DNA of 14,980 nt from Alphaproteobacteria bacterium (GCA_009785175.1 WQWV01000023.1:1-14980), one strand, 5' to 3'; shown: positions 1-14,140, counted from the stretch's first letter. Numbers and translations: made by a program. The notes: generated by a model from the sequence alone, not told the origin.

Positions 1-498
1 GCCCTCGAACTCGTAAACGTGCCCGGCGTCGCCGAACATGGCGTTCGCGATATCGAATCCAAGGTCTGTGGCAGCCGTTTTGACCTGCTCCTCGGTCTTG
101 CCCTCGATTTCGATGAAAGGTTTAAGGCCGGGCCAGGTGTCGATATCGGCCTCGACATCGCCGCGGCGCCAGGTTTCGCGGAGGGTTTCCTGATACGCTT
201 TTTGCCTGAATTTCAAGGAGTTAAGGAATCCTATGGCGTTTTCGTAATTGTCGACCTTTAGGCAGATTTCGGTGTTTCCTTGTATCCCGGAGGTCGATGT
301 TTTCTTTATGCTCATAGTTATACAATCGGCCTCTTGCCGGACGCGGGCAAAGGCAACATCGAGATTATTCTCGACCGCGAAAATCGCGCGTTTGGGCATG
401 TATTCCGGGTGGACGAGCGAGAACCCGGCGGCGCGCAGTTTGGCGCGTGTGGCGTCCTTGTCTATGGGGTAAAATTTCAGTTCGATTTCTGATTGCAT
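1..498 (-). CDS. CYTH-domain protein (CyaB-like class IV adenylate cyclase / triphosphate tunnel metalloenzyme family); 3' end runs off the window
   Basis: Not in the ORF track because no stop lies inside the window. The reverse complement from the ATG at 496-498 reads MQSEIELKFYPIDKDATRAKLRAAGFSLVHPEYMPKRAIFAVENNLDVAFARVRQEADCITMSIKK...HVYEFEG. The N-terminal EIELKF signature and ~166 aa length are typical of the CYTH family. Confidence 0.55.
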   Translation of the reverse strand, partial: MQSEIELKFYPIDKDATRAKLRAAGFSLVHPEYMPKRAIFAVENNLDVAFARVRQEADCITMSIKKTSTSGIQGNTEICLKVDNYENAIGFLNSLKFRQKAYQETLRETWRRGDVEADIDTWPGLKPFIEIEGKTEEQVKTAATDLGFDIANAMFGDAGHVYEFEG

Positions 499-504
499 GC
501 GAGG

Positions 505-533
505 ATTATAAGTTGCTGCTTTGGGCAAGTCAA
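505..533 (-). promoter_or_regulatory. sigma70-type promoter for the CYTH gene, predicted leaderless
   Basis: On the minus strand: TTGACT (528-533), 17-nt spacer, TATAAT (505-510), 6 nt (499-504), then ATG (496-498). No SD is present. Confidence 0.45.
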
Positions 534-544
534 GGGGACGCTTT

Positions 545-594
545 ACTTCATCGCGCTATCGCGATATCATGATATCACACTATCGTGATGAAGT
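545..594. repeat. Palindromic element A (ACTTCATC ... GATGAAGT arms, inner GATATCATGATATC perfect palindrome)
   Basis: 8-bp perfect inverted arms at 545-552 and 587-594. The inner part contains the 14-bp perfect palindrome GATATCATGATATC (564-577) and a CACACTATCG block shared with element B at 6073-6116. It lies between the divergent CYTH and truB promoters. Confidence 0.5.
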
Positions 595-639
595 GTGTTG
601 TGATTTTTCCCCATATTATCAATATATTAGGAAATCGCG

Positions 640-668
640 TTGATTTTGTGGGTTTTGCGCATTATAAT
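640..668 (+). promoter_or_regulatory. sigma70-type promoter for truB, predicted leaderless
   Basis: TTGATT (640-645), 17-nt spacer, TATAAT (663-668), 6 nt, ATG at 675. No SD is present. Confidence 0.5.
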
Positions 669-674
669 TCTAAA

Positions 675-1661
675 ATGCTCAACGGTTTTATCAATTTTTA
701 CAAGGAATCGGGGCTGTCCTCGAACGATGCGCTTTACCGTATAAAACGCCTGCTTTTTCCGGAGTTCGGAAAGGTCAAAATCGGGTTTGTCGGGACGCTT
801 GACCCGTTGGCCGAGGGGGTTTTGCCAATCGCGCTTGGGGAGGCTACCAAATTATTGCCGTATATCACGGATGGCCGAAAAACTTATGTTTTCAATATAA
901 AGTTCGGGGCGGAAACTACCACTGCGGACAGGGGTGGGGAGGTGGTTGCGACGTCCGATAAAATCCCTATGCGCGACGAGATTTTGGCGGCTGTTGCGAG
1001 TTTCCGTGGTGCGATTACCCAAGTTCCGCCTAAATACAGCGCTATACAAATCGGCGGGCGGCGGGCGTATGACCTTGCGCGCGAGGGTGTGGAATTCGAA
1101 ATTAAATCGCGGTCTAACTTTGTGCATGAGTTTGAATTGTTGGGGCAAGCACCCTACAGCCCAAAGGGCTCCGCGCGCTCCGCCGCCCCCACGCTGGACG
1201 CGCGCGGTATACACCGCTTGCCGCCCAGCTCGGCGTCGCTTGCTGGAACAGAGTGCGAGTGGCAATTCCGCATAACCGCCGACACAGGCTTTTACGTCCG
1301 TTCGATGGCGTGCGATTTGGCGCGTGCGGTCGGTTCGCTTGGCTATGCCTCATATATATATAGGGAGGCGTCCGGGGCGTTTGAGGCGGATACTGCAATA
1401 TCGCTTGACAAGTTGGCAAAAATGTTTGAGAATACGGCAAAACCTGATGCACGAGATTTTATTTTGGATTTGTGCTTCCCTCTGAACGGCATCTTGGAGG
1501 AGAAGATCAGCGAAGAGGTCGCTGTCCGATTACGACACGGAATGTCCGTGGAATATGTCGGCTTGGACGGAATTCGCAAAGTAATCCTTAATGGTTCTTT
1601 GGTCGCTATCGCGGAAATTCGCGATGGTAGAATGTATCCGGTGCGCGTAATAAACAACTAA
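675..1661 (+). CDS. truB: tRNA pseudouridine(55) synthase TruB
   Basis: The ORF-track 585..1661 frame is trimmed to the internal ATG at 675 (MLNGFINFYKESGLSSNDAL...). That start matches the canonical TruB N-terminus and sits 6 nt after a TATAAT. The catalytic motif GFVGTLDPLAEGVLPIALGEATK (the TruB HTGTLDPLATGVL motif) is present. truB-rpsO-pnp synteny supports the call. Confidence 0.85.
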   Translation: MLNGFINFYKESGLSSNDALYRIKRLLFPEFGKVKIGFVGTLDPLAEGVLPIALGEATKLLPYITDGRKTYVFNIKFGAETTTADRGGEVVATSDKIPMRDEILAAVASFRGAITQVPPKYSAIQIGGRRAYDLAREGVEFEIKSRSNFVHEFELLGQAPYSPKGSARSAAPTLDARGIHRLPPSSASLAGTECEWQFRITADTGFYVRSMACDLARAVGSLGYASYIYREASGAFEADTAISLDKLAKMFENTAKPDARDFILDLCFPLNGILEEKISEEVAVRLRHGMSVEYVGLDGIRKVILNGSLVAIAEIRDGRMYPVRVINN

Positions 1662-1663
1662 AT

Positions 1664-1689
1664 GGATTCCGGGTCAGGCCCGGAATGAC
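1664..1689 (+). repeat. Hairpin element copy 1 (GGATTCCGGG-tcagg-CCCGGAAT followed by GAC)
   Basis: 8-bp stem 1666-1673 / 1679-1686 with a 5-nt loop, followed by GAC. It starts 5 nt after the truB stop and ends 21 nt before the rpsO ATG. Same family as the copies at 11530-11555 and 11660-11684. Confidence 0.5.
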
Positions 1690-1709
1690 GAAAGAAAAAG
1701 GTAAAAACT

Positions 1710-1961
1710 ATGGCAGACAAAAAGAAACTCGCTCTTGCAAAACACGACAAGGACACCGGATCGGCCGCAGTGCAGATCGAAATCCTGACGGCCCGCATAC
1801 TCGGCCTTGAGGGTCATTTCAAAAATGCGCCCAAGGACAAGGCTTCGCACCGCGGCCTTATCACGATGGTAAACAAGCGCAAGAAGCTTCTTGCATACCT
1901 TGCGAAAACCGACAAGGCGACATACGAAGAAACGCTTAAAAAACTAAACCTCCGCAAATAA
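1710..1961 (+). CDS. rpsO: 30S ribosomal protein S15
   Basis: 83 aa. The DTGSAAVQIEILTARILGLEGHFKNAPKDKASHRGL stretch matches the S15 consensus (DTGSxEVQvAlLTeRI...H.kD.hSRRGL). SD AAAGG lies 9 nt upstream. Position between truB and pnp is canonical. Confidence 0.9.
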   Translation: MADKKKLALAKHDKDTGSAAVQIEILTARILGLEGHFKNAPKDKASHRGLITMVNKRKKLLAYLAKTDKATYEETLKKLNLRK

Positions 1962-1978
1962 GCGGAACAACAACAAAT

Positions 1979-2056
1979 GCCCCCGGCTGGGCAATGTTGG
2001 AATATCAAGCGCTAGGCCTAGCGTTTCATCTTCTGACATAGTGCGCGGCCGGGGGC
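1979..2056 (+). promoter_or_regulatory. Structured rpsO-pnp intergenic leader (long-range stem enclosing a 14-bp perfect palindrome)
   Basis: GCCCCCGGC (1979-1987) is the exact reverse complement of GCCGGGGGC (2048-2056). Inside lies the perfect palindrome CGCTAGGCCTAGCG (2010-2023), followed by the U-rich TTTCATCTTC. It sits directly upstream of the pnp SD, as expected for an rpsO terminator/attenuator plus an RNase III-type pnp leader stem. Confidence 0.4.
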
Positions 2057-2076
2057 GAAACAGAAAGGAAAAAACT

Positions 2077-4206
2077 ATGTTTGGAATATTTGGAAAAAAA
2101 TCCACATCTGAAACATCAATGTTCAACATCACCGAAAAGCGCATGAACTGGGAAGGCAAGGAACTTGTCCTTCAGACCGGGAAAATCGCGCGTCAAGCGA
2201 CCGGAGCCGTCATGGCCACATACGGAGAAACAACCGTGCTTGCCACCGTCGTCGCCAACAAGGAGCCGAAACCCGACCAGGGCTTCTTCCCTTTGACGGT
2301 CGATTACCAGGAAAAATTCAGCTCGGCCGGTAAAATCCCCGGATCGTTCAAGCGCCGCGAAGGCCAGCCGTCGACCGACGAAGTGCTTACCGCGCGTCTT
2401 ATCGACCGGCCTGTGCGCCCCCTGTTCCCTGATAACTTCAAGAACGAGGTTCAGGTCGTCGCAACCGTATTCAATTATGACAAGCAGAACAAGCCGGACA
2501 TCTTGGCCATGGTCGCTTGCTCGGCCGCGTTGGCGATTTCCGGCGTGCCGTTCGCAGGACCCATCGGTGCCGCGCGCGTCGCATACAAGGATAAGAAATA
2601 CATCATCAACCCGACTTTGTCCGAACTTGTCGACACCGAATTGAATTTGGTTGTCGCAGGAACCAAGGACGGCGTGCTTATGGTAGAATCCGAAGCGAAT
2701 CAGTTGCCCGAAGACGTAATGCTTGGCGCGGTCGAGGCTGGATTCAAATCCTTCCAGGCCGTAATCAAACTTATCAACGAGATGGTTGCCGAAGCAGGCA
2801 AGGCGAAATGGGAGCTTCCGGCCGTTAACGAAAACTTCCCCGTAGTGGAGAAGATCGTGCGCGATGCGATCACCGCGGATCTTCAGGCCGCTTTTGGTAT
2901 CAAGGAAAAGCAGGCCCGCACCGAAGCCGTCCACGCCGCTCAGAAAAAAGCGCGCGAGAAAGTCGCCGAGATTACCAACACCACCGGCGAGCTTAACCAA
3001 TTCGCAGCGGTCGCATACGAAAACTTGTCCGCGGAAATCCTTCGCGGAGCAGTGTTGGCCGGAGAGCCCCGCATCGACGGACGCGACACTAAGACCGTGC
3101 GTCCCATCGAGTGCGAAGTCGGAATATTCAGCCGCAACCACGGCTCGGCGTTGTTCACACGCGGCGAAACGCAAGCTATCGTTTCCGCCACCATTGGTGT
3201 CAAGGACGACGAACAACTCCTTGACGATTTGGACGGCGTTCGCAACGATCCCTATATGCTCCACTACAACTTCCCTCCGTTCTCGGTCGGCGAAGTCGGA
3301 CGTATCGGCGCGCCCAAGCGTCGCGAAATCGGACACGGCAAGCTTGCCTTCCGCGCAAACCGCGCCGTGTATCCTTCGTTCGAGGAATTCCCCTATACTA
3401 TCCGTATCCTTGCCGACATAACCGAATCGAACGGTTCGTCGTCAATGGCCACGACCTGCGGCACTTCGCTTGCCATGATGGACGCGGGTATTCCCGTCAA
3501 GGCCGCCGTTGCCGGTATCGCAATGGGCCTTATCAAGGAAGGCGAAAAGTATGTTATCCTTTCCGACATCATGGGCGACGAAGACCACCTTGGCGACATG
3601 GATTTCAAGGTTGCTGGAACGTCCGCCGGTATCACCGCGCTTCAGATGGATTTGAAAATCACTTCGATTAGCTTCGACATCATGAAGAAGGCGCTTGCCC
3701 AGGCGTGCGACGGACGCAAGCATATCCTTGGCGAAATGGCGAAGGCTATCAAGGAACCCCGCAAGGAATTGTCCGCATACGCGCCCACAATCCGCTCTAT
3801 CACCATCAATCCCAAGAAGATCCGCGAGGTCATCGGCTCGGGCGGTTCGGTCATCAAGGCTTTGACCGAAAAGACCCAGACGAAAATCGACATCACGGAC
3901 GACGGCGTCATAAAAATCGCCGGAACCGACGGCGACAACATTCAGCGCGCGATCGACCTTATCATGGAAATCGCCGCCGAGCCCGAAGTAGGCCAGCTCT
4001 TTGACGCGAAGGTTATCAAGCTTCTTGACATCGGCGCAATCGTTTCGTTCGGCAAGAACTTCGAGGGCATGGTCCACGTTTCCGAAATCGACAACAAGCG
4101 TATCGAAAAGCCTTCGGACGTCTTGAAGGTCGGCGAGATTGTGAAAGTGATTGTCGTCGAACCTAAAGACGGTAAGACAAGGCTTTCGATTAAAAAGGCT
4201 AAGTAA
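2077..4206 (+). CDS. pnp: Polyribonucleotide nucleotidyltransferase (PNPase)
   Basis: Two RNase PH-like domains, then a KH motif ([15 protein letters not shown]) and a C-terminal S1 domain ([20 protein letters not shown]...GMVHVSEI). Start is set at ATG 2077, 7 nt after SD AAAGGAA. The track's GTG at 2041 is rejected. The homology-based start MFNITEK at 2119 lacks an SD and remains an alternative. Confidence 0.9.
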
Positions 4207-4228
4207 TTCGTTTTTCACGAGTTGAGGA

Positions 4229-4257
4229 ATCCCCGGTTTCGGCCGGGGATTTTTTTT
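4229..4257 (+). terminator. Rho-independent terminator of pnp
   Basis: ATCCCCGG (4229-4236), loop TTTCGG, CCGGGGAT (4243-4250), then a run of 7-8 T. Confidence 0.8.
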
Positions 4258-4383
4258 ACTAACGCATATATGACAGCGCGCCGCAGGCGGCCAGTGCTCG
4301 CCCCCACCCGGGCGCTGGCTCAAACAAGTTTTCGCGCCCCCGGGGCTCGACTGTCCGCCGTTTTCTTTTCCTTAAAATATCCC

Positions 4384-4413
4384 TTGACAAAATATTGCGG
4401 GGGGGGGTAGGTT
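4384..4413 (+). promoter_or_regulatory. Promoter module M1 with a G9 tract in the spacer (candidate phase-variable promoter of the flotillin-like gene)
   Basis: Perfect TTGACA (4384-4389), then an 18-nt spacer containing GGGGGGGGG (4399-4407), then TAGGTT (4408-4413). A leader with SD AAGGA follows 8 nt before ATG 4451. The module is near-identical to M2 at 6136-6165. Confidence 0.5.
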
Positions 4414-4450
4414 AGTCTATAGGTCTAATAAAATAAAAAGGAAAAACACC

Positions 4451-6001
4451 ATGGAACTTATTCAATATATAATGCTTGGAGGCGCATCCGCCGCAACCCT
4501 TACCGCTGCGATCGTCGGTTATAAAATCTTGAAATTGCGCACGATCGTGCCTGCCGATATGGTGCACATTGTCCAAAGCGTAAAGAATACCACATCGTAT
4601 GGTAAAGACCAAAAGGACGAGAATAAAAAAGACACCGGAAACGTCTATTATAAATGGCCTCAGATGATCCCGGTTCTTGGTGTCGTGGTCAAGCAGTTGC
4701 CGGTTTCCAACTTTGATATCCGCATGGATAATTTCGAGGCGTATGACAAGGATCGTGTTCCCTTCAACGTCGATGTTTCCACCTTCTTCCGCATAGCCGA
4801 TACCAACAAAGCGGCCGAGCGCGTCGCCTCGTTCGACGAACTGAGAAACCACCTTACCGTAATGGTGCACGGCTCGGTCCGTTCCATCATGGCGAACGCG
4901 AAACTCGAGGAGATCATGGAGCAGCGCTCGACCTATGGAGAAAAGTTCACGAAGGAAGTCGAAGACCAGCTCAAGGCCTGGGGTGTCGAGCCTGTCAAGA
5001 ACATCGAGCTTATGGACATACGCGATACGAAAGAGTCCACCGCCATCGCGAACATAATGAAAAAGAAGCAGTCCGAAATCGCAAAGGAATCACGCACTAC
5101 CGTCGCCCTTAACAACAAAGAGGCGGATATGGCCGAAATAGACGCCGAACGCGAGGTCGAGGTAAAGCGCGCCGAAAAAGAACAGTTGGTCGGCGAGCGC
5201 AATGCCGAGAAGAATCGCGTTATCGGTATCGCCAACGAACAGCAAAAACAGTTGGTTGCCGAACAGGAAAAAATCACTGCGGAAAAGGATCTCGAAATCA
5301 CAAGGGTCAAAGAAATAACAAACGCCGAAATCGCGCAGAATAAAAGTATCATCGAAGCCGAAACCACCAGGAAGACTGCGGTCATCAAAGCCGACCAGGA
5401 CAAGGAAACCATGAAGATCAAGGCCGAGGCGGATAAGGAAAAGATGAGGATAGACACCGACGCAAAAAAATACGAGACGGAAACCATCGCCGATGCCGAC
5501 AAGCTTGCCAAGGAAAAGAACGCAAGCGCCCACCAGACCATGGAACTTGCCAAGGCCGCCGGTATAAAGGCGACTGGTGAAGCGTCGGCCGATGCCGAAA
5601 AGATGCTCCAGCTTGCCCGTGTTGTCGCGGAAAAGGAGTTGGCGGAAACCATCGGCTCGAACAAGGAGTATCAGGAATACCTGATCAACCTTGAGAAGGT
5701 CAAAAAGAATGCCGAAGTTGCGATCAAGACCGCCGAATACAACTCGGAAGTCGGAAAGGAACAGGCCAAAAACTTGAATAAAGCCGATATAAAAATCATC
5801 ACGAATACTTCTGATGGAAATGTCGGTGGCGGTGTAAGTAAGGTCATGGATTTGTTCTCAAGCAAGGGGGGCCAGGCCGTCAACGGAATGTTGGAAACTT
5901 TGTCCAATACCGATATGGGCAAGGGACTGCTTGAAAAAATCGGTGTTATAAACAAAGGTAAGCAAGACCAAGTAAAAGGCGCGCTTGATAAACAGAGATA
6001 A
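4451..6001 (+). CDS. Flotillin-like SPFH/band-7 membrane protein (FloT/YuaG/YqiK type)
   Basis: 516 aa. N-terminal TM helix (LIQYIMLGGASAATLTAAIVGYKIL). SPFH domain (...FNVDVSTFFRIADTNKAAERVASF...VEPVKNIELMDIRD). Long EA/K-rich coiled-coil. Gly/Ser-rich C-terminal tail (IKIITNTSDGNVGGG...), resembling the B. subtilis FloT architecture. SD AAGGA lies upstream. Confidence 0.85.
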   Translation: MELIQYIMLGGASAATLTAAIVGYKILKLRTIVPADMVHIVQSVKNTTSYGKDQKDENKKDTGNVYYKWPQMIPVLGVVVKQLPVSNFDIRMDNFEAYDKDRVPFNVDVSTFFRIADTNKAAERVASFDELRNHLTVMVHGSVRSIMANAKLEEIMEQRSTYGEKFTKEVEDQLKAWGVEPVKNIELMDIRDTKESTAIANIMKKKQSEIAKESRTTVALNNKEADMAEIDAEREVEVKRAEKEQLVGERNAEKNRVIGIANEQQKQLVAEQEKITAEKDLEITRVKEITNAEIAQNKSIIEAETTRKTAVIKADQDKETMKIKAEADKEKMRIDTDAKKYETETIADADKLAKEKNASAHQTMELAKAAGIKATGEASADAEKMLQLARVVAEKELAETIGSNKEYQEYLINLEKVKKNAEVAIKTAEYNSEVGKEQAKNLNKADIKIITNTSDGNVGGGVSKVMDLFSSKGGQAVNGMLETLSNTDMGKGLLEKIGVINKGKQDQVKGALDKQR

Positions 6002-6024
6002 TATTTGCCCTTGTTAAAGAAAAT

Positions 6025-6050
6025 CCCCCCTCTTCGGAGGGGATTTTTTT
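6025..6050 (+). terminator. Rho-independent terminator of the flotillin-like gene
   Basis: CCCCTC (6027-6032), TTCG tetraloop, GAGGGG (6037-6042), then T7 (6044-6050). Confidence 0.8.
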
Positions 6051-6072
6051 GTAGTATATTATAAACTCGATT

Positions 6073-6122
6073 CACTTCATCACACTATCGCGCTAGTGTG
6101 ATAGTGTAATGAAGTGTTTTTT
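6073..6122. repeat. Palindromic element B (CACTTCATCACACTATC ... GATAGTGTaATGAAGTG) followed by T6
   Basis: 17-bp inverted arms at 6073-6089 and 6100-6116 with one mismatch, a 10-nt loop, then TTTTTT (6117-6122). Outer arms and the CACACTATCG block match element A (545-594). It ends 19 nt upstream of the M2 -35. Confidence 0.5.
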
Positions 6123-6135
6123 CATAAAACAATGC

Positions 6136-6165
6136 TTGACAAAATCCTCCGGGGGGGGGTAAGTT
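6136..6165 (+). promoter_or_regulatory. Promoter module M2 with a G9 tract in the spacer (candidate phase-variable promoter of the small Cys-rich gene trio)
   Basis: TTGACA (6136-6141), an 18-nt spacer containing G9 (6151-6159), TAAGTT (6160-6165), then a leader with SD AAAGGAAA before ATG 6200. The M1/M2 alignment is CTTGACAAAAT..CGGGGGGGGGTA.GTT.AGTCTAT...TAATAAA..AAAGGAAA. Confidence 0.5.
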
Positions 6166-6199
6166 TAGTCTATTCGTTTAATAAACAAAGGAAATAGAA

Positions 6200-6451
6200 A
6201 TGAAATGTATTTATGACGACAACAAAGAATGTAAATCAAACGGAGAGTGCTATGACACGGTCTGCATGGACATGAGCACGTTTAATATGAAAAATTTCAA
6301 AGAAAAAGTAAATGCCGAGCTTGCCGAGCGGGCAAAAGGTTCGGGGGAAAAGTATGCTCCGATAGGCGGCTTGATCCTTAGGTCCGGTCATGTCTTCTCG
6401 GAAATGTATCAGGCGATCTGCTGTGTTAAAGCTTTTGGCAACCAAAAATAG
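6200..6451 (+). CDS. Small cysteine-rich protein, paralog 1 (unknown family)
   Basis: 83 aa. SD AAAGGAAA at 6187-6194. No signal peptide. N-terminal MKCIYDDNKEC...C...C motif, central GSGEKYAPIGG, and C-terminal MYQAICCVKAFG. All three are shared with the next two ORFs. Confidence 0.65.
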   Translation: MKCIYDDNKECKSNGECYDTVCMDMSTFNMKNFKEKVNAELAERAKGSGEKYAPIGGLILRSGHVFSEMYQAICCVKAFGNQK

Positions 6452-6500
6452 GAAATAAAAATGAAGTGGATGCCCGACGGGCGATAGGGGGAAGATAATT

Positions 6501-6737
6501 ATGATATGTATCTATAGCGACAGCAAAGCCTGTGTAAATAACAGAATGTGTTATAAGATAGTTTCGCAGATAGGAAGCCTTGATCCGGATAGTTTCCAGG
6601 GTAAGGTCAATGAAGTCATTATAAGGAAGCAGGGGAACTATGTCCTTAACGGAGGAGTGGCGGCGTGTGCGGAATCAGAAAACAAACATGCCTGTATGTT
6701 CCAAGCGCTTCGTTGCGTAAATGTGCGTCAAGGATAG
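6501..6737 (+). CDS. Small cysteine-rich protein, paralog 2
   Basis: 78 aa. SD GGGGGAAG upstream. MICIYSDSKAC..C N-motif, KQGNYVLNGG centre, and MFQALRCVNV C-motif are homologous to paralogs 1 and 3. Confidence 0.6.
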   Translation: MICIYSDSKACVNNRMCYKIVSQIGSLDPDSFQGKVNEVIIRKQGNYVLNGGVAACAESENKHACMFQALRCVNVRQG

Positions 6738-6743
6738 TTAGTT

Positions 6744-6983
6744 ATGCGATGCAAATTCGACGATTACAAAGAATGCAACGCCGGACCCGAGCAGAAGTGC
6801 CGCGAGATCGTTCAAGCGGGAACCAAATCAAGCCTTGTCAGCAATGTAAGAAAAGTGGTTGCCAATAATATCGAGGGCAGCGGCGAAAAATACGTTGCTG
6901 TGGGCAAAGCCAAGCAGACGGGCAGCTCGCAATGGTATCAGTGGATTTATTGCCTGAAGAATCCGGGCGCGTACGACAGGTAG
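6744..6983 (+). CDS. Small cysteine-rich protein, paralog 3
   Basis: 79 aa. SD AGGATAG upstream. It starts 7 nt after paralog 2 ends. MRCKFDDYKEC N-motif, GSGEKYVAVG centre (identical core to paralog 1), and YQWIYCLKNPG C-motif. Confidence 0.65.
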   Translation: MRCKFDDYKECNAGPEQKCREIVQAGTKSSLVSNVRKVVANNIEGSGEKYVAVGKAKQTGSSQWYQWIYCLKNPGAYDR

Positions 6984-7193
6984 GGAGAACCCGCCATTTA
7001 GCGCGCTGGCGTTGTCATCTGCGAGTAAACCTATCGGTCATGGAAGCATGTAGTCCACTTCCTCAAGGTTTCTCTTGATTCCTAGCCATCATCGCGAACT
7101 GCGCCAGCATTCGCACTTGCCACGCCGTAGATTTATCGAAGGCGGGTCGCCGCACGAAGGCAACTTACGTTGCGTTCGCAGGCAAATTAAACC

Positions 7194-7237
7194 ATTGATA
7201 TTTTTAAGGGGGGGGGCGCCTTCGGCGTAGCTATAAA
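7194..7237 (+). promoter_or_regulatory. Degenerate third copy of the G9 promoter module (TTGATA ... G9 ... TAGCTATAAAT)
   Basis: TTGATA (7194-7199), 8 nt, GGGGGGGGG (7208-7216), then CGCCTTCGGCG replacing the TAGGT of M1/M2, then TAGCTATAAAT. No plus-strand gene lies downstream, only a hairpin and then lon in antisense. Confidence 0.3.
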
Positions 7238-7238
7238 T

Positions 7239-7287
7239 CCCTCCTGCAAAGCTTGCGCTGTCCTGCGTCCAGCTCTTCGCAGGAGGG
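7239..7287. terminator. Long stem-loop between convergent lon and the small-gene trio (possible bidirectional terminator)
   Basis: CCCTCCTGC (7239-7247) pairs with GCAGGAGGG (7279-7287) around a 31-nt internally structured loop. It is 7-15 nt from the lon stop. Flanks are GTTTGGTT on plus and ATTTAT on minus, so the U-tracts are weak. Confidence 0.4.
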
Positions 7288-7293
7288 GTTTGG

Positions 7294-9798
7294 TTATGGT
7301 TGTGCTTTGCTAGCGATGATAGGAGATGAGGCCACAGGCATATCCTCCAAGAGGCGGGCGAAGAAGTTCGCGGGCTCCTTGTCCACAATCGGTTTCGGCG
7401 CGGTGAGGAGCGCTATTTTCAAAACTTCGTCCGCGGTTTTGACGGGAATGATTTTTATCTTCTCTTTCACTATGTCGGGAATTTCGGTTAAATCCTTTTC
7501 GTTTTCATACGGGATAAGCGCGGTTTTGATTCCGGCGCGCATGGCCGCAAGCAGCTTTTCCTTTAGTCCGCCGATGGCGAGAACCCGGCCGCGAAGCGTC
7601 ATCTCGCCGGTCATGGCGATATCGCGGCGCACCGGGATTTCGGTTAAGGTCGATACTATCGAGGTAAGCATCGCGATGCCAGCCGACGGGCCGTCCTTGG
7701 GCGTGGCGCCCTCGGGCACGTGGATATGAATATCGATCTTGTTCCAGATTTTGGGATTTATACCGAAGGATTTCGAGCGGCTCCTTATAAACGATTTCGC
7801 CGTTTCGATCGATTCCTTCATCACGTCGCCAAGCTTGCCGGTGAACTTGGCTTCGCCTTTGCCCTCCATGACCGCGGTTTCGATCGAGAGCATTTCGCCG
7901 CCGACCTCGGTCCAGGCAAGGCCGTTTACGAATCCGACCTCGTCCCTTTTACCTGCGCTTAGGTGGTCGTATTTTTCGGGGCCCAAATAGTCGGCGAGGT
8001 TCGCGGCGGAAACTTTGATTATCTCCTTTTTCACTTCGTCGGCGATGAGTGTGAAGTTGTCGGAGGACGGCGCGGCGCGTTCGATTTTCAACGCCGCCTT
8101 TCGCATGATTTTATCGATTTGGCGTTTAAGGCCGCGGACGCCCGACTCGCGCGTATAGTTCGAAATAACCTTTTTCAGCGCGGCGTTGTCGATTTCGATT
8201 TCGCGCGCGGTAAGCGAATTTTTTTCAAGGCATTCGGGTATGATGTGGCGCTTGGCGATTTCCAATTTCTCGGTCTCGGTATAGCCGGAAAGCTCGACAA
8301 TCTCGAGTCGGTCGAGAAGCGGGCGTGCGATGCGGTCAAGCGAGTTGGCCGTGGTGATGAACATGACCTCGGAAAGATCGTAATCAAGGTCGAGGTAGTG
8401 GTCGGCGAACGTCGAATTTTGTTCGGGATCAAGAACCTCGAGCATAGCTGCGGCCGGGTCGCCATGAAGGCGGTCCGCTCCCATCTTGTCGATTTCATCA
8501 AGCAGGATCAGCGGATTTCCGGTGCCTGCTTTTTTAATCGTGGAAAGTATCTTGCCGGTGGTCGAGCCGACATAGGTTTTCCTATGCCCGCGGATTTCCG
8601 CCTCGTCGTGAACGCCGCCAAGCGAGAGTTTCGCGAATTTGCGGCCGGTGGCGGTTGCGATGGCGCGGCCAAGGCTTGTCTTACCTACGCCAGGAGGGCC
8701 GGCGAAGCAGAGGATTGTCCCCTTCGTCTTGCCGGCGCGTTTTTGGATTGCCAAGAATTCTAGTATCCTGTCCTTGATTTTATCGAGGCCGTAGTGCGCT
8801 TCGGTAAGCGTCTTTTCCGCGAAGGCGAGGTCGTTTTTCACCTCGTCGCGTTTGCCCCACGGAAGATCAAGCACGGTTTCGATGTAGTTGCGAAGCACGT
8901 TCGCCTCGGACGAGTGCGAGTTCATTTTTTTGAGCTTATTCAGGTCGGCCTTCACGCGGGCGGCGGCCTCTTTGGAAAGCGGCGCTTCGGCTATACGTTT
9001 TTCAAGAGCCGAGAATTCGTCGTCGCCTTCGTCGCCAAGCTCCTTTTGGATCGCGCGCATGGCTTCGTTAAGGTAATACTCGCGCTGGTTTTGGTTGATC
9101 GACTTGTTGACCTCGACGCGAATCTTCTGATCCACTTTGATCTGATTTATCTCGTTTTCAAGAAGGGCGATCAGGGCCCTTATGCGGCCGGCCATCGTGT
9201 CTTCTTCGAGTATCTTCTGTTTCGCCGCGATCTTGCCGGGAATGGACATCGCGATCGTTGCGACAAGGAGCAGGGGCTCGGCTATTTCGTCAAGGTCGCC
9301 GGTCGAGGAAACCATCGCGCTGCGCCCGGATTTTAGGTAGCGGTAAAAACTTGCAAGGAGTGCGCGGCGAAGCGTTTCTACCTCGAGTATGCCGTGCGGA
9401 GGGTAGCTTGTTTCCTCGTCGGTCGGCACGGTGGTCGCCCAGAGGTCGCCCTGCCTCGGCTCGAACGAAATGGCGCGGACCTTCTCTTCGGCCTCGACAA
9501 TCAGCTTCATCGAGCCGTCGGAAAGCGTGGTGTTCGAAACCACATACGCGCGCGCGCCGATGTCATAAAGATCGGCGTCGGTTTTCGCCTCTTTCACGCC
9601 TTCACGCACCGCCAAAAGTAGGAGGGGCGAGCCGGTGTTGACCGCCTCGATTATCGACTGGTTCGGCTTCTGCCCGGACGTGATCACCGGGATCATCATG
9701 CCGGGAAAGGGGACTATGTCCGCAAGGGGTAGTATAGGCAACGCCTCGCGCGGATTTCTGTCTTGGCGGGAAAGCCGTCTGGGTTTGGAAAACAACAT
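7294..9798 (-). CDS. lon: ATP-dependent Lon protease
   Basis: 834 aa. N-terminal LON substrate-binding domain ([17 protein letters not shown]). Walker [19 protein letters not shown]+ module. C-terminal serine protease domain with [17 protein letters not shown] and the catalytic KEKLLAA motif. Confidence 0.95.
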
Positions 9799-9804
9799 GG
9801 TGAT

Positions 9805-9838
9805 AGTATAGGGAAGTTTTTACGGGAATTCAAGGGGG
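9805..9838 (-). promoter_or_regulatory. lon promoter: sigma32-like CCCCCTTGAA-N15-CCCTATACT that also reads as sigma70 TTGAAT-17-TATACT, predicted leaderless
   Basis: Minus strand: CCCCCTTGAA (9829-9838), then CCCTATACT ending at 9805, 6 nt, then ATG (9796-9798). No SD is present. Confidence 0.45.
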
Positions 9839-9840
9839 CT

Positions 9841-9860
9841 TTGAAACAATTTGAAACACA
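9841..9860 (+). repeat. Tandem direct repeat TTGAAACAAT / TTGAAACACA between the divergent lon and lpxA promoters
   Basis: Two adjacent 10-mers sharing TTGAAACA. A third TTGAAA at 9868 is the lpxA -35. Confidence 0.35.
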
Positions 9861-9867
9861 ATAGCGA

Positions 9868-9895
9868 TTGAAATATTTGCGTGTCCGTCTATAAT
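9868..9895 (+). promoter_or_regulatory. sigma70-type promoter for lpxA, predicted leaderless
   Basis: TTGAAA (9868-9873), 16-nt spacer, TATAAT (9890-9895), 7 nt, ATG at 9903. No SD is present. Confidence 0.5.
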
Positions 9896-9902
9896 AAAAG
9901 TT

Positions 9903-10772
9903 ATGGAAAAATTGCGCTCGAAACAGCTTGTCGACCTTGAAACGCTTAACTCGCGGCGAACATTTATCGCAAAATCCGCGGACGTCGACACTAGCGCTAA
10001 GATCGGCAAGAACGTAGTTATCGAGGACTTCTGTAAAATCGGTGCCAACGTGAAAATCGGCGATTTCGCCACTATCATGCGCGGCTCTATCATCGAGGAA
10101 AACTCGGTCATCGGGCGCGAATGTGTAATCCACCCCTATGTCATAATCGGCAACCAGAGCCACGATTTGAAGTTCGCCGACGCCGAGAAAACACCGGTTT
10201 TAATCGGCGAGCGAGTGATAATCCGCGAGTATTCAAACATTCATGCCGGCACGCCGCTTGGCGGAAACACTATCGTTTCGGACGACGCCTATATCATGTC
10301 CCACTCGCATATAGGGCACGATTGCAAGGTCGGGCGCGGCGCTTTGCTTTCGCAGCAGACGACGTTGGGCGGCGAGGTCGACATCGGCGAGTATGCCGTT
10401 ATCGGCGGATGCTCGGCCATACATCAATTCTGCACCATCGGGAAATACGCAATCATCGGCGGGTGTTCCAAAATCACCCAGGACGTTATTCCGTTCGCGA
10501 TGAGCGATGGAAATCCGCAAAGCCTTGACGGCCTTAATCTGCTTGGTTTGAAACGCCACGATTTTTCGGCCGAGGACGTTCGCGTGATAAAGGAAGTTTA
10601 CAAGACGCTTTTCATTGCCGACGATTTGGTTTGGGAAGAGCGGCTTGCGGCGGCGCAAAACGTATATGGCGACTCGGCTGTGGCTCAGGTGATCTTCGAC
10701 TTTATCAAGAACGTGTCGAGGCGGCCTTTGGCCCGTCCCAAGGGAAAGTTCAAGGACCAAGGCAATGTCTAG
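9903..10772 (+). CDS. lpxA: Acyl-ACP--UDP-N-acetylglucosamine O-acyltransferase LpxA
   Basis: 289 aa. Left-handed beta-helix hexapeptide repeats (IGKNVVIEDFCKIGANVKIGDFATI...). The conserved HxxHDCxVG region reads HSHIGHDCKVG. C-terminal helical domain (LGLKRHDFSAEDVRVIKEVYKTLF). It has a ~20-aa N-terminal extension relative to E. coli LpxA. Confidence 0.85.
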   Translation: MEKLRSKQLVDLETLNSRRTFIAKSADVDTSAKIGKNVVIEDFCKIGANVKIGDFATIMRGSIIEENSVIGRECVIHPYVIIGNQSHDLKFADAEKTPVLIGERVIIREYSNIHAGTPLGGNTIVSDDAYIMSHSHIGHDCKVGRGALLSQQTTLGGEVDIGEYAVIGGCSAIHQFCTIGKYAIIGGCSKITQDVIPFAMSDGNPQSLDGLNLLGLKRHDFSAEDVRVIKEVYKTLFIADDLVWEERLAAAQNVYGDSAVAQVIFDFIKNVSRRPLARPKGKFKDQGNV

Positions 10773-11562
10773 GCTTGGAATTATCGCGGGCGATAAATCG
10801 CTTCCCTCCACGCTTATAAATTTTCTTAAATCCCAGGGGGCGGACGATACCGTTGTTGCGGGCATAATCGGTTCATACGAAGGGGTTGCGGACGCGCGGT
10901 TCAGGCTTGCCGAGCTTCCGAAACTGATTGCATATTTCAAGCGTCTTGGCGTAGAGCGTGTAGTGCTTGCCGGCGGCGTACATACTGCCAAGGTGGGATT
11001 TTCTTTGAAGTTGATCGAGTTCGCGCTGAGGTTGCTTTTTATGAAAAACCGCTATGACGGCGTGTTGCGCCTTGTCGTGCGTGAAATCGAAAAAAACGGC
11101 ATGAAGGTCGTCGGGATCCAAGAGATTATGCCTCAGTTGCTTATTGCCGAAGGAGCTATGGGTGCGATTGCTCCGTCGGAATTGCAGACGGCCGAAATCA
11201 ATAGAGCATGGCGGCGAGCGCGGGAATTTGCCTCTACCGATGTCGGGCAATCTTGCGTGGAGGTTGGCGGAGTCGTTGTTGCGACCGAGAAGTTTGCCGG
11301 CACGAACGAGCTTATAGGGCGGGCGGGAATGCGGCCCGCAGCGGTGCTTTTGAAAATGCCGAAACCGGCTCAGGAAATGCGCGCGGACGTGCCGGTGATC
11401 GGCGTGGATACAGTGGAGCTGTGTGCGGCTCGGGGCTATGCCGGAATTGCGGTCGAGGCCGGGCGCGTAATTGTCGAGGATAGGGCGGCGACGGTGGCGG
11501 CGGCTGATAAAAATAAAATCTTTATAGTTGGATTCCGGCTCGGGGCCGGAATGACAGGGTGA
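10765..11562 (+). CDS. lpxI: UDP-2,3-diacylglucosamine hydrolase LpxI (DUF1009 family)
   Basis: 265 aa. Overlaps the lpxA stop by 8 nt (ATGTCTAG), indicating translational coupling. The N-terminus MSRLGIIAGDKSLP is LpxI-like. Position immediately after lpxA matches the LpxI gene order known from Caulobacter. Confidence 0.65.
   Translation: MSRLGIIAGDKSLPSTLINFLKSQGADDTVVAGIIGSYEGVADARFRLAELPKLIAYFKRLGVERVVLAGGVHTAKVGFSLKLIEFALRLLFMKNRYDGVLRLVVREIEKNGMKVVGIQEIMPQLLIAEGAMGAIAPSELQTAEINRAWRRAREFASTDVGQSCVEVGGVVVATEKFAGTNELIGRAGMRPAAVLLKMPKPAQEMRADVPVIGVDTVELCAARGYAGIAVEAGRVIVEDRAATVAAADKNKIFIVGFRLGAGMTG
11530..11555 (+). repeat. Hairpin element copy 2 (GGATTCCGGC-tcggg-GCCGGAAT followed by GAC), overlapping the lpxI 3' end
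   Basis: 8-bp stem 11532-11539 / 11545-11552, 5-nt loop, then GAC. It encodes the last residues of the LpxI ORF (FRLGAGMTG). Confidence 0.45.
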
Positions 11563-11612
11563 AGGTGGGGCGGCGTCTTGCGCGCAGCGAGGCAAGCTCG
11601 CTAGGAAAACAC

Positions 11613-11641
11613 TTGAAATCCGCGGAAACAACTCCTATAAT
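11613..11641 (+). promoter_or_regulatory. sigma70 consensus promoter for the 138-aa hypothetical gene
   Basis: TTGAAA (11613-11618), 17 nt, TATAAT (11636-11641). This yields a ~60-nt leader containing hairpin copy 3 and SD AAAGGAG. Confidence 0.5.
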
Positions 11642-11659
11642 AAGGATATAGCAATTCCC

Positions 11660-11684
11660 GGATTCCCGCCTTCGCGGGAATGAC
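11660..11684 (+). repeat. Hairpin element copy 3 (GATTCCCGC-cttc-GCGGGAAT followed by GAC) in a 5'UTR
   Basis: 8-bp stem 11662-11669 / 11674-11681, 4-nt loop, then GAC. A partial direct copy AATTCCCGG lies just upstream. It ends 23 nt before ATG 11707. Confidence 0.45.
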
Positions 11685-11706
11685 GCGGAGAAGAAAGGAG
11701 TCCGAC

Positions 11707-12123
11707 ATGATCAATGTTTCGTTCCGCAAAAAATCCACTCAAATTATCGATGCGACGGTTGCCGAGGTCGATGTGTTCATTGACAAAGACCATAAGAAGG
11801 GCCGGGCGCCAAATGAAAAACTTCCGAAGGAAATGGAGCTTTTGAAGGTCTTCAAAAACCTTTTGGCAAAGCTTAAGGAGAAGCTTAACGCGCGGCCGCA
11901 AAACGAGATCGAGGAAAACAAGCAGAAGGCGGAAATCGAAGAGCTGAACCAACTTGTCGGCGCGGTGCTTGACCAACTTTTCGCAATGGCGAACGCCGGG
12001 GAAATTACCGATCAGAAGCTTGTCGCCGCGATCAAATCCTGGCTTGTCGAACTTAATATGCGTCGCAGGCAGGGATCGAAAATCATGAACCGGCTTGCAG
12101 AAATGCGGCAAAAGGTGCGATAG
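11707..12123 (+). CDS. Hypothetical protein, predicted coiled-coil, no recognisable family
   Basis: The ORF-track 11680..12123 frame is trimmed to ATG 11707 (MINVSFRKK...), which has SD AAAGGAG 7 nt upstream. Heptad-like K/E/L-rich middle section (ELLKVFKNLLAKLKEKLNARPQNEIEENKQKAEIEELNQL). Confidence 0.55.
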   Translation: MINVSFRKKSTQIIDATVAEVDVFIDKDHKKGRAPNEKLPKEMELLKVFKNLLAKLKEKLNARPQNEIEENKQKAEIEELNQLVGAVLDQLFAMANAGEITDQKLVAAIKSWLVELNMRRRQGSKIMNRLAEMRQKVR

Positions 12124-12134
12124 CCGATTTCTTG

Positions 12135-12162
12135 TTGCAAAATCCAAAAACAGTGCTATATT
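12135..12162 (+). promoter_or_regulatory. Candidate promoter for the tRNA-Val/tRNA-Leu pair
   Basis: TTGCAA (12135-12140), 16 nt, TATATT (12157-12162), about 25 nt upstream of the tRNA-Val 5' end. Confidence 0.35.
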
Positions 12163-12186
12163 TGGGCGCATTCGGGTAAACCCGAT

Positions 12187-12263
12187 GGGTGTTTAGCTCA
12201 GCTGGCTAGAGCATCTCGTTTACACCGAGAGGGTCGGGGGTTCAAGTCCCTCAACACCCACCA
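12187..12263 (+). tRNA. tRNA-Val (anticodon TAC)
   Basis: Hand-folded cloverleaf. Acceptor GGGTGTT/AACACCC. D arm GCTC-AGCTGGCTA-GAGC. Anticodon arm TCTCG-TTTACAC-CGAGA with U33 and A37. T arm GGGGG-TTCAAGT-CCCTC. Discriminator A and an encoded CCA. Confidence 0.85.
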
Positions 12264-12326
12264 CCCTGCGCTTAAGCTTCGGGTGGCAGGCCACCTGGCA
12301 AAAGCGTAGGTTGGCGACATTGATGT

Positions 12327-12410
12327 GCGGTCGTGGCGAAACGGTAGACGCACTACCTTGAGGTGGTAGCGGGGCGACCCATGGAAGTTCAAGTCTTCTC
12401 GACCGCACCA
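12327..12410 (+). tRNA. tRNA-Leu (anticodon GAG), class II with a long variable arm
   Basis: Acceptor GCGGTCG/CGACCGC (7 bp). Anticodon arm CTACC-TTGAGGT-GGTAG. Variable-arm hairpin GGGGCGACCC. T arm GGAAG-TTCAAGT-CTTCT. Discriminator A and an encoded CCA. Confidence 0.85.
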
Positions 12411-12483
12411 TTAAAAAAACCTGGAACGGGACGTCGAAGTTAACTCGCGAGCTCGCTAGCCTTCTCGCTAACAACGCTCGTCG

Positions 12484-12510
12484 GCAAGCTGTGCTTGCGC
12501 TCGGTTTCTT
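12484..12510 (+). terminator. Weak candidate terminator after the tRNA pair
   Basis: GCAAGC-TGT-GCTTGC hairpin (12484-12498), then GCTCGGTTTCTTCTT. The stem is short and the U-tract is interrupted. Confidence 0.2.
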
Positions 12511-12542
12511 CTTGGGCGCGCCATTTTCAAAAGGAATTAAAA

Positions 12543-12614
12543 ATGCGAAGAGTGGAACATATGATGCCTTGGCGCCGCGTGTTTTCATTGCCAGAAAAAT
12601 TGCCGGTAATATGA
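12543..12614 (+). CDS. Possible 23-codon upstream ORF translationally coupled to the kinase gene (MRRVEHMMPWRRVFSLPEKLPVI)
   Basis: SD AAGGA (12531-12535) is 7 nt before ATG 12543. Its stop TGA (12612-12614) overlaps the downstream ATG (12611-12613) as ATGA. The downstream gene has no SD of its own. Confidence 0.25.
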   Translation: MRRVEHMMPWRRVFSLPEKLPVI

Positions 12615-13231
12615 AACGCAAAAAGCCTTTTGTAATTGGAATTACCGGAAAGACCGGGAGCGGCAAGACCTTTGTCGCCGAACTGCTTGGCGAAATGACC
12701 GGGTTCGAGGTGATCCACTGCGACAAGTATCTTAACAACATCATTCTTATAGAACCGATACGGAAATTATTGGAACTTAGGCATGGAATGGATTTGGACA
12801 TCGGACCCGGCGACGAGGCGGGGCGAAAAAATATCGACGGTAAAATTCCATATATGGTTGCGAACATGAGCAGGGCGGAGGCTCGGCTGTTCACGCTTGT
12901 CATCGACATTATGCTTTGCGACGAGCTGATAAAAAGAAGGGGCGAACCGGTGATAGTCGACGGCCTTTATATACCGAAATTTTACTTTTCAAAGGAATTC
13001 GCCAGCCTTGCCTATATCACAAGTGCCGGCGGGACCGCGGCAAGGCACGAAAAGATCGCGCGGCGCCATCCCGGCCTTCCCTTTGAGGTGATAAAGAAAG
13101 CCGACGACCTTTGCAACGGAGTGTTCGGATATAAAAATATCAAATACGACAGGACATTCAGCAACGACTATACGAACGTTCCAGCCGGGCTCGAGCAGTA
13201 TGCGGAAAAAATCCTACGGGCCGCGAGATAG
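12611..13231 (+). CDS. coaE: Dephospho-CoA kinase-like P-loop kinase
   Basis: The ORF-track 12491 (GTG) frame is trimmed to its only in-frame ATG. MKRKKPFVIGITGKTGSGKTFVAELLGEMTGFEVIHCDKY matches the CoaE N-terminus (xIGLTGGIGSGKST...G..VIDAD). Length is ~206 aa. C-terminal conservation is weaker. Confidence 0.55.
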   Translation: MKRKKPFVIGITGKTGSGKTFVAELLGEMTGFEVIHCDKYLNNIILIEPIRKLLELRHGMDLDIGPGDEAGRKNIDGKIPYMVANMSRAEARLFTLVIDIMLCDELIKRRGEPVIVDGLYIPKFYFSKEFASLAYITSAGGTAARHEKIARRHPGLPFEVIKKADDLCNGVFGYKNIKYDRTFSNDYTNVPAGLEQYAEKILRAAR

Positions 13232-13245
13232 CGGAAATTTCGCCG

Positions 13246-13536
13246 TCAATCATCTTTCAAATAACACTTCATCGTAGTATCATCATGGGTGAAAATTGCT
13301 TCGTCGCCCTTGCCGTGGAATTCGGCGGTGTCATTCGTGTATTTAGCGCCGGAGGCCGAGGGGACGCGTTCAAGCCCCCTGAAAAACTCATACGAATTGC
13401 GGCCGGTTTTAAGCAGCACATCGGCGCCGTCTTCGCGCGGCCTTAGCTCGAGCTTTGTATCGGCACAATCATATATGATTTTTTCTGATGTCAAAGCGCA
13501 GGAGGCAAGGCCCATGACCAAAAGTATTTTTTTCAT
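13246..13536 (-). CDS. mliC: MliC/PliC-family lysozyme-inhibitor lipoprotein
   Basis: 96 aa. Signal peptide with lipobox LASC. IIYDCADTKLEL...VPSASGAKYTNDTAEFHGKGDEAIFTHDDTTMKCY follows the MliC pattern (Y.C......L......SASGARY.dG.yE.w.KGDEA.L......C) with the two conserved Cys. Confidence 0.7.
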   Translation of the reverse strand: MKKILLVMGLASCALTSEKIIYDCADTKLELRPREDGADVLLKTGRNSYEFFRGLERVPSASGAKYTNDTAEFHGKGDEAIFTHDDTTMKCYLKDD

Positions 13537-13542
13537 GGTTTG

Positions 13543-13571
13543 ATTATATAATATTAAGGAGCTTGACGCAA
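13543..13571 (-). promoter_or_regulatory. sigma70-type promoter for mliC, predicted leaderless
   Basis: Minus strand: TTGCGT (13566-13571), 17-nt spacer, TATAAT (13543-13548), 6 nt, ATG (13534-13536). It overlaps the stop of the upstream gene. Confidence 0.45.
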
Positions 13572-14088: not shown

Positions 14089-14111
14089 TTTGGCCTTTTA
14101 GGTTTTAATGC

Positions 14112-14140
14112 ACAATAGACGGTATATTGAAATTCGTCAA
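14112..14140 (-). promoter_or_regulatory. Candidate promoter for the 169-aa hypothetical gene
   Basis: Minus strand: TTGACG (14135-14140), 17 nt, TATTGT (14112-14117). A ~25-nt leader with an SD follows. The -10 is weak. Confidence 0.3.

Follow-up and report, generated by a model that had tools for sequence, protein, structure and literature searches.

Promoter-like motifs abutting the start codons of five genes in an alphaproteobacterial contig, and their predicted leaderless mRNAs

The stretch of DNA described here (hereafter, the window) is a whole NCBI contig of 14,980 bp (GCA_009785175.1, WQWV01000023.1) from a metagenome-assembled genome (MAG) labelled "Alphaproteobacteria bacterium", and the same DNA is found within an 18.3-kb contig of the European Nucleotide Archive (ENA). 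Among its 16 genes are five, encoding a CYTH protein, TruB, Lon, LpxA and MliC, in which a promoter-like motif ends only 6 or 7 nt ahead of the ATG, an arrangement predicted to give mRNAs without a leader. The identities of these five, together with those of S15 (rpsO), PNPase (pnp), a Band-7/flotillin protein and LpxI, were confirmed with Pfam, and an Rfam scan of the window returned two tRNAs only, with no known leader RNA such as the S15 or pnp leaders. No close relative was found: TruB and Lon are only 40-62% identical to anything else found, and the best relatives of Lon (62% identical) and TruB (47%) both occur in a "Rickettsiales bacterium" MAG from Joint Genome Institute (JGI) sample 3300042612. 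A literature search on the sample or assembly identifiers gave no match. The clade is known from metagenome assemblies alone, and its MAGs, carried at NCBI as "Alphaproteobacteria bacterium" or "Rickettsiales bacterium", probably come from gut or other host-associated samples.

The five sites share one layout. Upstream of the CYTH gene (minus strand, 496-533), a -35 hexamer TTGACT (533-528) is followed after a 17-nt spacer by the -10 hexamer TATAAT (510-505) and, after a gap of 6 nt, by the ATG (498-496). Its divergent neighbour truB (plus strand, 640-677) has TTGATT (640-645), a 17-nt spacer, TATAAT (663-668) and a 6-nt gap to the ATG at 675. The genes lon and lpxA form a second divergent pair, with TTGAAT (9833-9828), a 17-nt spacer, TATACT (9810-9805) and a 6-nt gap to the ATG (9798-9796) for lon (minus strand, 9796-9833), and TTGAAA (9868-9873), a 16-nt spacer, TATAAT (9890-9895) and a 7-nt gap to the ATG at 9903 for lpxA (plus strand, 9868-9905). 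The fifth gene, mliC (minus strand, 13534-13571), is preceded by TTGCGT (13571-13566), a 17-nt spacer, TATAAT (13548-13543) and a 6-nt gap to the ATG (13536-13534). All five are predicted to be leaderless. The -10 box is thus TATAAT in four cases and TATACT in one, and a base-by-base reading placed the first base of the -35 hexamer 35 nt from the A of the ATG in 5/5 genes, while the best match to a Shine-Dalgarno (SD) sequence upstream of any of them was no longer than 3 nt. The initial annotation, which had reported both this layout and the lack of SD sequences, proved exact to the base.

As predicted promoters, four of the five sites agree with the sigma-70 consensus at 9-11 of 12 positions, that of mliC combining TTGCGT with TATAAT, and four of the five ranked among the best-scoring in a consensus promoter scan of the window. 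Each gene is the first behind its own promoter: the -35 boxes of the CYTH/truB and lon/lpxA pairs lie 106 nt and 34 nt apart, respectively, and the promoter of mliC takes up nearly all of the 42-nt gap downstream of the stop codon of the preceding gene. A weaker promoter-like site (542-570; 9/12) within the CYTH/truB interval could also serve truB.

Other elements occupy these intervals. Between the -35 boxes of lon and lpxA, a tandem direct repeat (9841-9860) carries TTTGAAACA twice and may represent a site for a shared regulator or an UP-type element. A palindromic element with the core CACTTCATCACACTATCG (545-594) lies between the back-to-back promoters of CYTH and truB, and related copies were found upstream of the promoter of a Cys-rich protein gene (6073-6117) and near the 3' end of mliC (13259-13282); these may represent repeated operators or repetitive extragenic palindromic (REP)-like elements.

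That AT-rich hexamers might simply have met by chance in intergenic DNA gains some plausibility from the base composition, the DNA upstream of the five genes having 28-50% GC and thus being more AT-rich than the window average. The counts leave this explanation with practically no probability. TATAAT-N6-ATG occurs three times against 0.06 expected, and the composite TTGNNN-N16-18-TATAMT-N6/7-ATG five times against 0.01 expected, with every match in the window falling at the 5' end of a Pfam-identified gene; none of 500 dinucleotide-preserving shuffles of the whole window reached five. Because intergenic DNA is more AT-rich than the window as a whole, a local shuffle confined to the 60-nt upstream regions of the 16 genes was also run, using the looser pattern TTGNNN-16..18-TAnnnT-6/7; five were observed against 0.025 expected, and 0/5000 shuffles gave more than one. 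A chance origin was ruled out by both tests, and the composite layout recurs, moreover, in independent genomes (see below). The main argument that these are promoters rather than merely AT-rich stretches is that a TTG hexamer stands at promoter spacing, 16-17 nt upstream, from all five of the -10 boxes located 6 or 7 nt from an ATG.

The significance of the layout depends on whether the ATGs are the true starts of translation, and by homology or the absence of an alternative start codon in the sequence, all five are judged sound. No start codon is available ahead of the ATG in the open reading frames (ORFs) of lon, lpxA and mliC. For the CYTH protein, position 3 of the Pfam profile aligns to residue 4 and the next ATG in frame comes 33 codons later; the ATG at 498 is required because the N-terminal ExExK motif is covered only with that start. 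The homology of TruB to solved structures begins at the Met of ATG 675, the 30 codons upstream being without counterpart (residue 2 of the Thermotoga maritima structure 1r3e aligns to residue 32 of the ORF opening at 585), and the NCBI Prokaryotic Genome Annotation Pipeline (PGAP) lists a protein of 328 aa (MCL2439770.1), as the initial annotation had argued in preferring 675 over 585. The first ATG of mliC is likewise needed because the lipoprotein signal depends on it: the product, MKKILLVMGLASC, carries the lipobox LASC, and on a reading of the sequence, the internal ATG at 13515 would leave just five residues before the Cys.

It might be supposed instead that the promoters are real, that translation begins at a downstream codon, and that the first annotated codons form a short 5' untranslated region. 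LpxA lends itself to this idea, since its homology to solved structures begins only near residue 18, which implies an N-terminal extension of approximately 14 residues, as does the automatic JGI/ENA call of mliC, which took the internal ATG. A TTG at codon +1 of lon would, furthermore, convert the N-terminus MLFSKPRRL to MFSK, identical to that of the closest relative (MFSKPRRL in the 62% identical P0002; MFGK is found in many others). However, no downstream in-frame start codon preceded by an SD was found at any of the five genes, in agreement with the initial annotation, which had named such codons as the observation that would overturn it. The TTG at codon +3 is the sole other start candidate of lpxA through codon +40, no ATG, GTG or TTG occurring from +4 to +40; the ExExK motif of CYTH and the N-terminus of TruB align from residues 1-4; the signal peptide of MliC depends on the first ATG; and the TTG of lon is only 3 nt away, so that the leaderless conclusion would be unchanged. 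Downstream initiation is considered very unlikely. Apart from its start, TruB contains an insertion of about 30-40 residues relative to solved TruB structures (window 1134-1259, residues about 154-195, between two aligned blocks), and the proteins of its closest relatives are shorter (288-307 aa compared to 328 aa).

A sigma-70 promoter directs initiation, preferably at a purine, some 7 nt beyond the end of its -10 hexamer. If the five motifs are promoters of this housekeeping type, with 6-7 nt separating the -10 hexamer from the start codon, +1 would coincide with the A of the ATG where the gap is 6 nt; where it is 7 nt, +1 would be that A or the nucleotide preceding it. The transcripts would then possess neither a 5' untranslated region nor an SD, and a ribosome carrying initiator tRNA would bind the 5'-terminal AUG directly; this arrangement would be common in the lineage, alongside ordinary SD-led genes. 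The initial annotation's placement of the transcription start at the A of the ATG is thus borne out as far as the type and spacing of the motifs are concerned, the start position itself being a prediction from them. With a probability of roughly 0.8, most of the five genes are proposed to be leaderless, their sigma-70 promoters, transcription starts and mode of translation being deduced from sequence.

Nearly all of the genes outside the five have instead an SD, ranging from AAGG to AAGGAGG, positioned 5-9 nt from the start. These include the internal or downstream genes lpxI and cys3 and the leadered rpsO and pnp, the exception being cys2, where only the G-rich GGGGGAAG was seen by eye. A hypothetical 138-aa gene (plus strand, 11613-11709) provides the closest contrast: TTGAAA-17-TATAAT (11613-11641) is followed by 65 nt to the ATG at 11707, with the SD AAGGAG at 6 nt. 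That a promoter equally as strong is joined to a classical leader indicates that two classes coexist. Classical leaders were also recognized at the flotillin gene (plus strand, 4384-4453), where TTGACA, an 18-nt spacer ending in nine G's and TAGGTT (4408-4413) are followed by 37 nt to the ATG at 4451 and an SD of AAGGA; at the first Cys-rich gene (plus strand, 6136-6202), with TTGACA, an 18-nt spacer again ending in nine G's, TAAGTT (6160-6165), 34 nt to the ATG at 6200 and the SD AAGGA; and at a hypothetical 169-aa gene (minus strand, 14086-14140), with TTGACG-17-TATTGT (14140-14112), 23 nt to the ATG at 14088 and the SD AAGG. A P-loop kinase-like gene (ATG 12611, MKRKKPFVIGITGKTGSGKT) fits neither class: it lacks an SD, and a -10 box is missing from the leaderless distance. 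The promoter-like site nearest to it, TTAAAA-17-TATGAT (12537-12565), would give a leader of approximately 40 nt without an SD.

The layout is not confined to the window. Upon reading the sequence upstream of every called gene in the contigs of relatives, it was found at nine further genes of GC-rich relatives (54-60% GC), eight of them with a spacer of 16-17 nt and a gap of 6-8 nt. With L155, these are three hypothetical genes (TTGACA-17-TAATAT-6-ATG, TTGACT-17-TATAAT-6-ATG and TTGACA-18-TATTTT-7-ATG); with L161, truB (TTGACA-16-TATAAC-6-ATG, encoding the same MLNG N-terminus as the TruB of the window), pth (TTGACT-16-TATAAT-7) and tyrS (TTGAAA-17-TAGACT-8); and with L160, tgt (TTGCAT-17-TATCAT-6), polA (TTGACC-17-TAGAAT-6) and a gene for an Fe-hydrogenase-like protein (TTGACT-17-TACTAT-6). 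The N-termini of pth (MAKLVIGLGNPG), polA (MNRKYILIDGSGY) and truB look canonical for their families. All 14 sites, including those of the window, start with ATG, a weak test given that most genes here do so anyway. The layout accounts for 5/16 genes of the window (approximately 30%), or 5 of its about 12 promoter-proximal genes (approximately 40%), and for 14/76 called genes in six clade contigs (85 kb).

A uniform scan, in which consensus promoters with at least 9/12 matches were followed to the ATG of an ORF of at least 80 codons, was applied to 79 kb of the clade (five of the six contigs). The -10-to-ATG gap was 6 nt in six cases, 7 nt in three and 8 nt in one, such that 10/27 consensus promoters situated within 60 nt of a long ORF stood at the leaderless distance. 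The distribution was bimodal, with no gaps of 0-4 or 9-12 nt and a second group at 17-45 nt comprising SD-led genes. The same scan of 1,582 kb of other Alpha- and Betaproteobacteria returned three sites at 5-8 nt, and none was found at 5-8 nt in 49 kb of AT-rich sister lineages. A Lon search of species-representative genomes gave, among the matches listed, relatives of approximately 50% identity (Bradyrhizobium, Ralstonia and others), and these genomes served as a negative control only. Within the AT-rich sister group recovered as Lon and TruB matches (L156-L159; approximately 30% GC), an SD-like sequence precedes nearly all genes and the leaderless layout was not seen. With the more distant L164 (48% GC), truB resides in the usual nusA-infB-rbfA-truB operon, the genes are mostly SD-led, and at most one leaderless-like site was seen (TTGACA-16-TAATCT-5-ATG).

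These gap lengths bear on a further explanation, namely that the TATAAT-like boxes are AT-rich, unstructured sequences for SD-independent ribosome loading on leadered mRNAs that arise from promoters farther upstream. AT-rich non-SD initiation regions are used by many bacteria (group B of GeneMarkS-2; PMC6028130), and the P-loop kinase-like gene at 12611, with neither an SD nor a leaderless -10 box, indicates that SD-independent initiation on a leadered mRNA may exist here. Such an element would, however, have no need of the TTG hexamer 16-17 nt upstream present in all five cases, nor of a position fixed at 6-8 nt from the ATG next to an empty zone at 9-12 nt. By the criterion of GeneMarkS-2, a general non-SD site would be expected at internal operon genes as well, but lpxI, cys2, cys3 and pnp lack the box and have SD-like or purine-rich sequences, which argues that the box is not a general ribosome site. 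Only 106 nt and 34 nt, moreover, separate the -35 boxes of the two divergent pairs, and the one further promoter-like site listed there is the weaker one at 542-570. Ribosome loading is hence regarded as an improbable origin of the boxes.

Several observations nonetheless weigh against the proposal that the five genes are transcribed from sigma-70 promoters as leaderless mRNAs. Additional upstream promoters or read-through could yield leadered transcripts as well, and the 42 nt that separate mliC from the preceding gene contain no terminator. The 7-nt gap of lpxA and the 8-nt gap of tyrS in L161 could leave a leader of 1-2 nt, and such leaders are inhibitory in both Escherichia coli and Caulobacter. 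Leaderless mRNAs are expected to have unstructured 5' ends, but the predicted folding energy of the first 30-50 nt did not separate the 14 genes with the layout from 39 leadered genes (p = 0.17-0.95). No leaderless-layout site was found in the relative L162, and the 79-kb sample is small, representing five contigs of perhaps four genomes.

The layout changes between orthologues. The gene for Lon, whose N-terminus (MFSK/MFGK) is kept in the relatives, has a TTGACT-type promoter in L160 (1556) and L163 (812), with 20-25 nt between the -10 box and the ATG, a leader of roughly 13-18 nt and an SD; in L155 (70), the SD GAGGAG lies close to the ATG and the only -10-like sequence is TAGTAT. From these upstream regions, lon appears as a clear case of one orthologue switching between the SD-led and the leaderless-type layout. 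CYTH is SD-led in L161, and lpxA is SD-led in AT-rich relatives, its nearest metagenome matches (54-61% identical) being too distant for a base-by-base comparison of promoters. Among the five genes of the window, the layout is retained by truB alone, as seen in L161, the single relative that allowed this comparison, while that of lon, CYTH and lpxA varies from one relative to another.

This turnover also bears on the view, advanced in the initial annotation, that the layout distinguishes core (housekeeping) genes from accessory ones with classical SD leaders. In its favour, truB, lon and lpxA are among the five, the flotillin, Cys-rich and lipoprotein genes are SD-led, and truB, pth, tyrS, polA and tgt carry the layout in relatives. 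The SD leaders described for the named accessory genes were confirmed, save that cys2 is only G-rich, but they form no contrast with the core given that rpsO, pnp and lpxI have SDs too, and both CYTH and mliC are hardly core functions. Furthermore, lon is SD-led in L155, L160 and L163 and CYTH is leadered in L161, and the layout stands before three hypothetical genes of L155 and the Fe-hydrogenase-like gene of L160. A core/accessory dichotomy was thus not upheld, and as a general account of the layout, it is unlikely. As read from the upstream regions, the real division is between genes directly behind their own promoter and everything else, with the layout changing between orthologues. The initial annotation saw a signature of the lineage in this dichotomy; as such a signature, the layout holds only for the GC-rich part of the clade, where it recurs in the nearest relatives, and it is not fixed for any given orthologue.

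Among the SD-led genes, the 24-nt ribosome-binding blocks of rpsO (1689-1712; CGAAAGAAAAAGGTAAAAACTATG) and pnp (2056-2079; CGAAACAGAAAGGAAAAAACTATG) are almost identical to each other, and that of the flotillin gene is similar (4431-4446). For pnp, the SD-preceded ATG at 2077 (giving MFGI, as in L161) is a better start than the ATG at 2119 of the automatic call. The Cys-rich genes (6200-6983) are three tandem paralogs encoding proteins of 78-83 aa without a Pfam family, and they share 70% identity across 40 nt at the 5' end.

The promoters of the flotillin gene and the Cys-rich trio belong to a second type found across the clade, consisting of TTGACAAA, 6-7 nt, a C, exactly nine G's and TAnnnT. 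Copies are located in the window at 4384-4413 and 6136-6165 and in L155 at 5507(-), L160 at 8069(-) and L161 at 15378(-), the spacer being 18 nt in 4/5; the 48-nt upstream blocks of the two copies in the window are 79% identical. Poly-G tracts placed in promoter spacers are suggestive of phase variation, but a length that stays at nine from genome to genome may instead denote a conserved regulatory element. Phase variation of these promoters was considered as an account of the "accessory" class and set aside, every copy having nine G's across genomes. Further runs of nine G's or nine C's occur in the window at 7208-7216 and in L161 at 2780, 16755 and 19745. That of the window falls within the 310 nt (6984-7293) that separate the Cys-rich trio from the 3' end of lon, where no ORF was called and Rfam gave no match. 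Three hairpin repeats, TGGATTCCGG...CCGGAATGAC in form, are found directly after the truB stop codon (1663-1689), within the last codons of lpxI (11529-11555) and in the leader of the gene at 11707 (11657-11685), and resemble REP-like or terminator elements.

The layout is of value to annotation, given that SD-based gene callers err at leaderless-type starts. The use of the layout for start calling, as put forward in the initial annotation, is supported by the JGI/ENA calls for this contig, where the upstream start of truB gives 357 aa, adding 29 residues, and the internal ATG of mliC gives a product of 89 aa with its signal peptide cut off; the PGAP call of TruB is right. At slightly less than even odds, and from the sampled sequences, it is proposed that this uncultured alphaproteobacterial clade may use leaderless mRNAs for 20-40% of its operons, that leaders are gained and lost quickly between orthologues, and that the habit is absent from the AT-rich sisters. 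Were this the case, the level would be that typical of Actinobacteria and Deinococcus, above the approximately 10% of Caulobacter and the near-absence of leaderless genes reported for most Alphaproteobacteria, and a poorly known alphaproteobacterial lineage would join the minority of Proteobacteria with frequent leaderless genes. The clade would then also constitute a natural system for the study of switching between SD-led and leaderless genes, with orthologues such as lon, leaderless-type in one genome and SD-led in relatives, available for comparison. The Alphaproteobacteria are the class that gave rise to mitochondria, and mammalian mitochondrial mRNAs are leaderless.

Arrangements of this kind are known from other bacteria. 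In the "group C" genomes defined with GeneMarkS-2, a Pribnow box precedes the start by 6-8 nt for 25-50% of operons; these comprise 1028 of 4769 bacteria and 5.6% of Proteobacteria, and are mostly Actinobacteria and Deinococcus-Thermus, such as Mycobacterium tuberculosis and Deinococcus deserti (Lomsadze et al., 2018; PMC6028130). The window has the same -10-to-start geometry, its share of approximately 40% of promoter-proximal genes is comparable to the 25-50% of operons of group C, and, as in group C, other genes use SD sites at the same distance, such that both classes coexist. Unlike group C, where high-GC genomes have a degenerate TAnnnT, a full TATAAT with a clear TTGNNN -35 is found here at approximately 52% GC; the group C label is genome-wide, whereas the present figures are sampled from contigs only. 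Zheng et al. (2011; PMC3160421) described "TA-led" genes, in which TAnnnT or TAtaaT located approximately 10-12 bp upstream of the start marks leaderless genes, and detected them in only 2 of the 117 genomes of Alphaproteobacteria surveyed, where they made up 4.7-7.8% of genes. The full TAtaaT form of medium-GC genomes is shared with the window, and the density of the leaderless layout in the contigs of this clade is higher than in those Alphaproteobacteria.

Closest in taxonomy is Caulobacter crescentus, a member of the same class, with 385 mapped leaderless mRNAs, about 10% of its genes (Schrader et al., 2014, PMC4117421; Bharmal et al., 2021, PMC8459731). AUG is the first codon in 95.6% of these, few mRNAs have leaders of less than 10 nt, and as little as a few nucleotides added at the 5' end inhibit translation (PMC8459731). 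The bimodal leader length of Caulobacter, with its rare short leaders, has its parallel in the gaps of 6-8 nt and of at least 17 nt observed here, with none at 9-12 nt, and its near-exclusive AUG in the ATG present at all of the sites. The shares differ, at approximately 18-30% of genes in the sampled contigs compared to approximately 10%, the former being sequence-based and the latter experimentally mapped. A single regulated phage gene offers a further parallel, its sigma-70 transcript beginning with the A of the AUG and its translation proceeding in the absence of an SD, there not as a genome-wide habit. The architecture of the five genes has therefore already been described, as group C, as TA-led genes and in Caulobacter, and no new mechanism is revealed.

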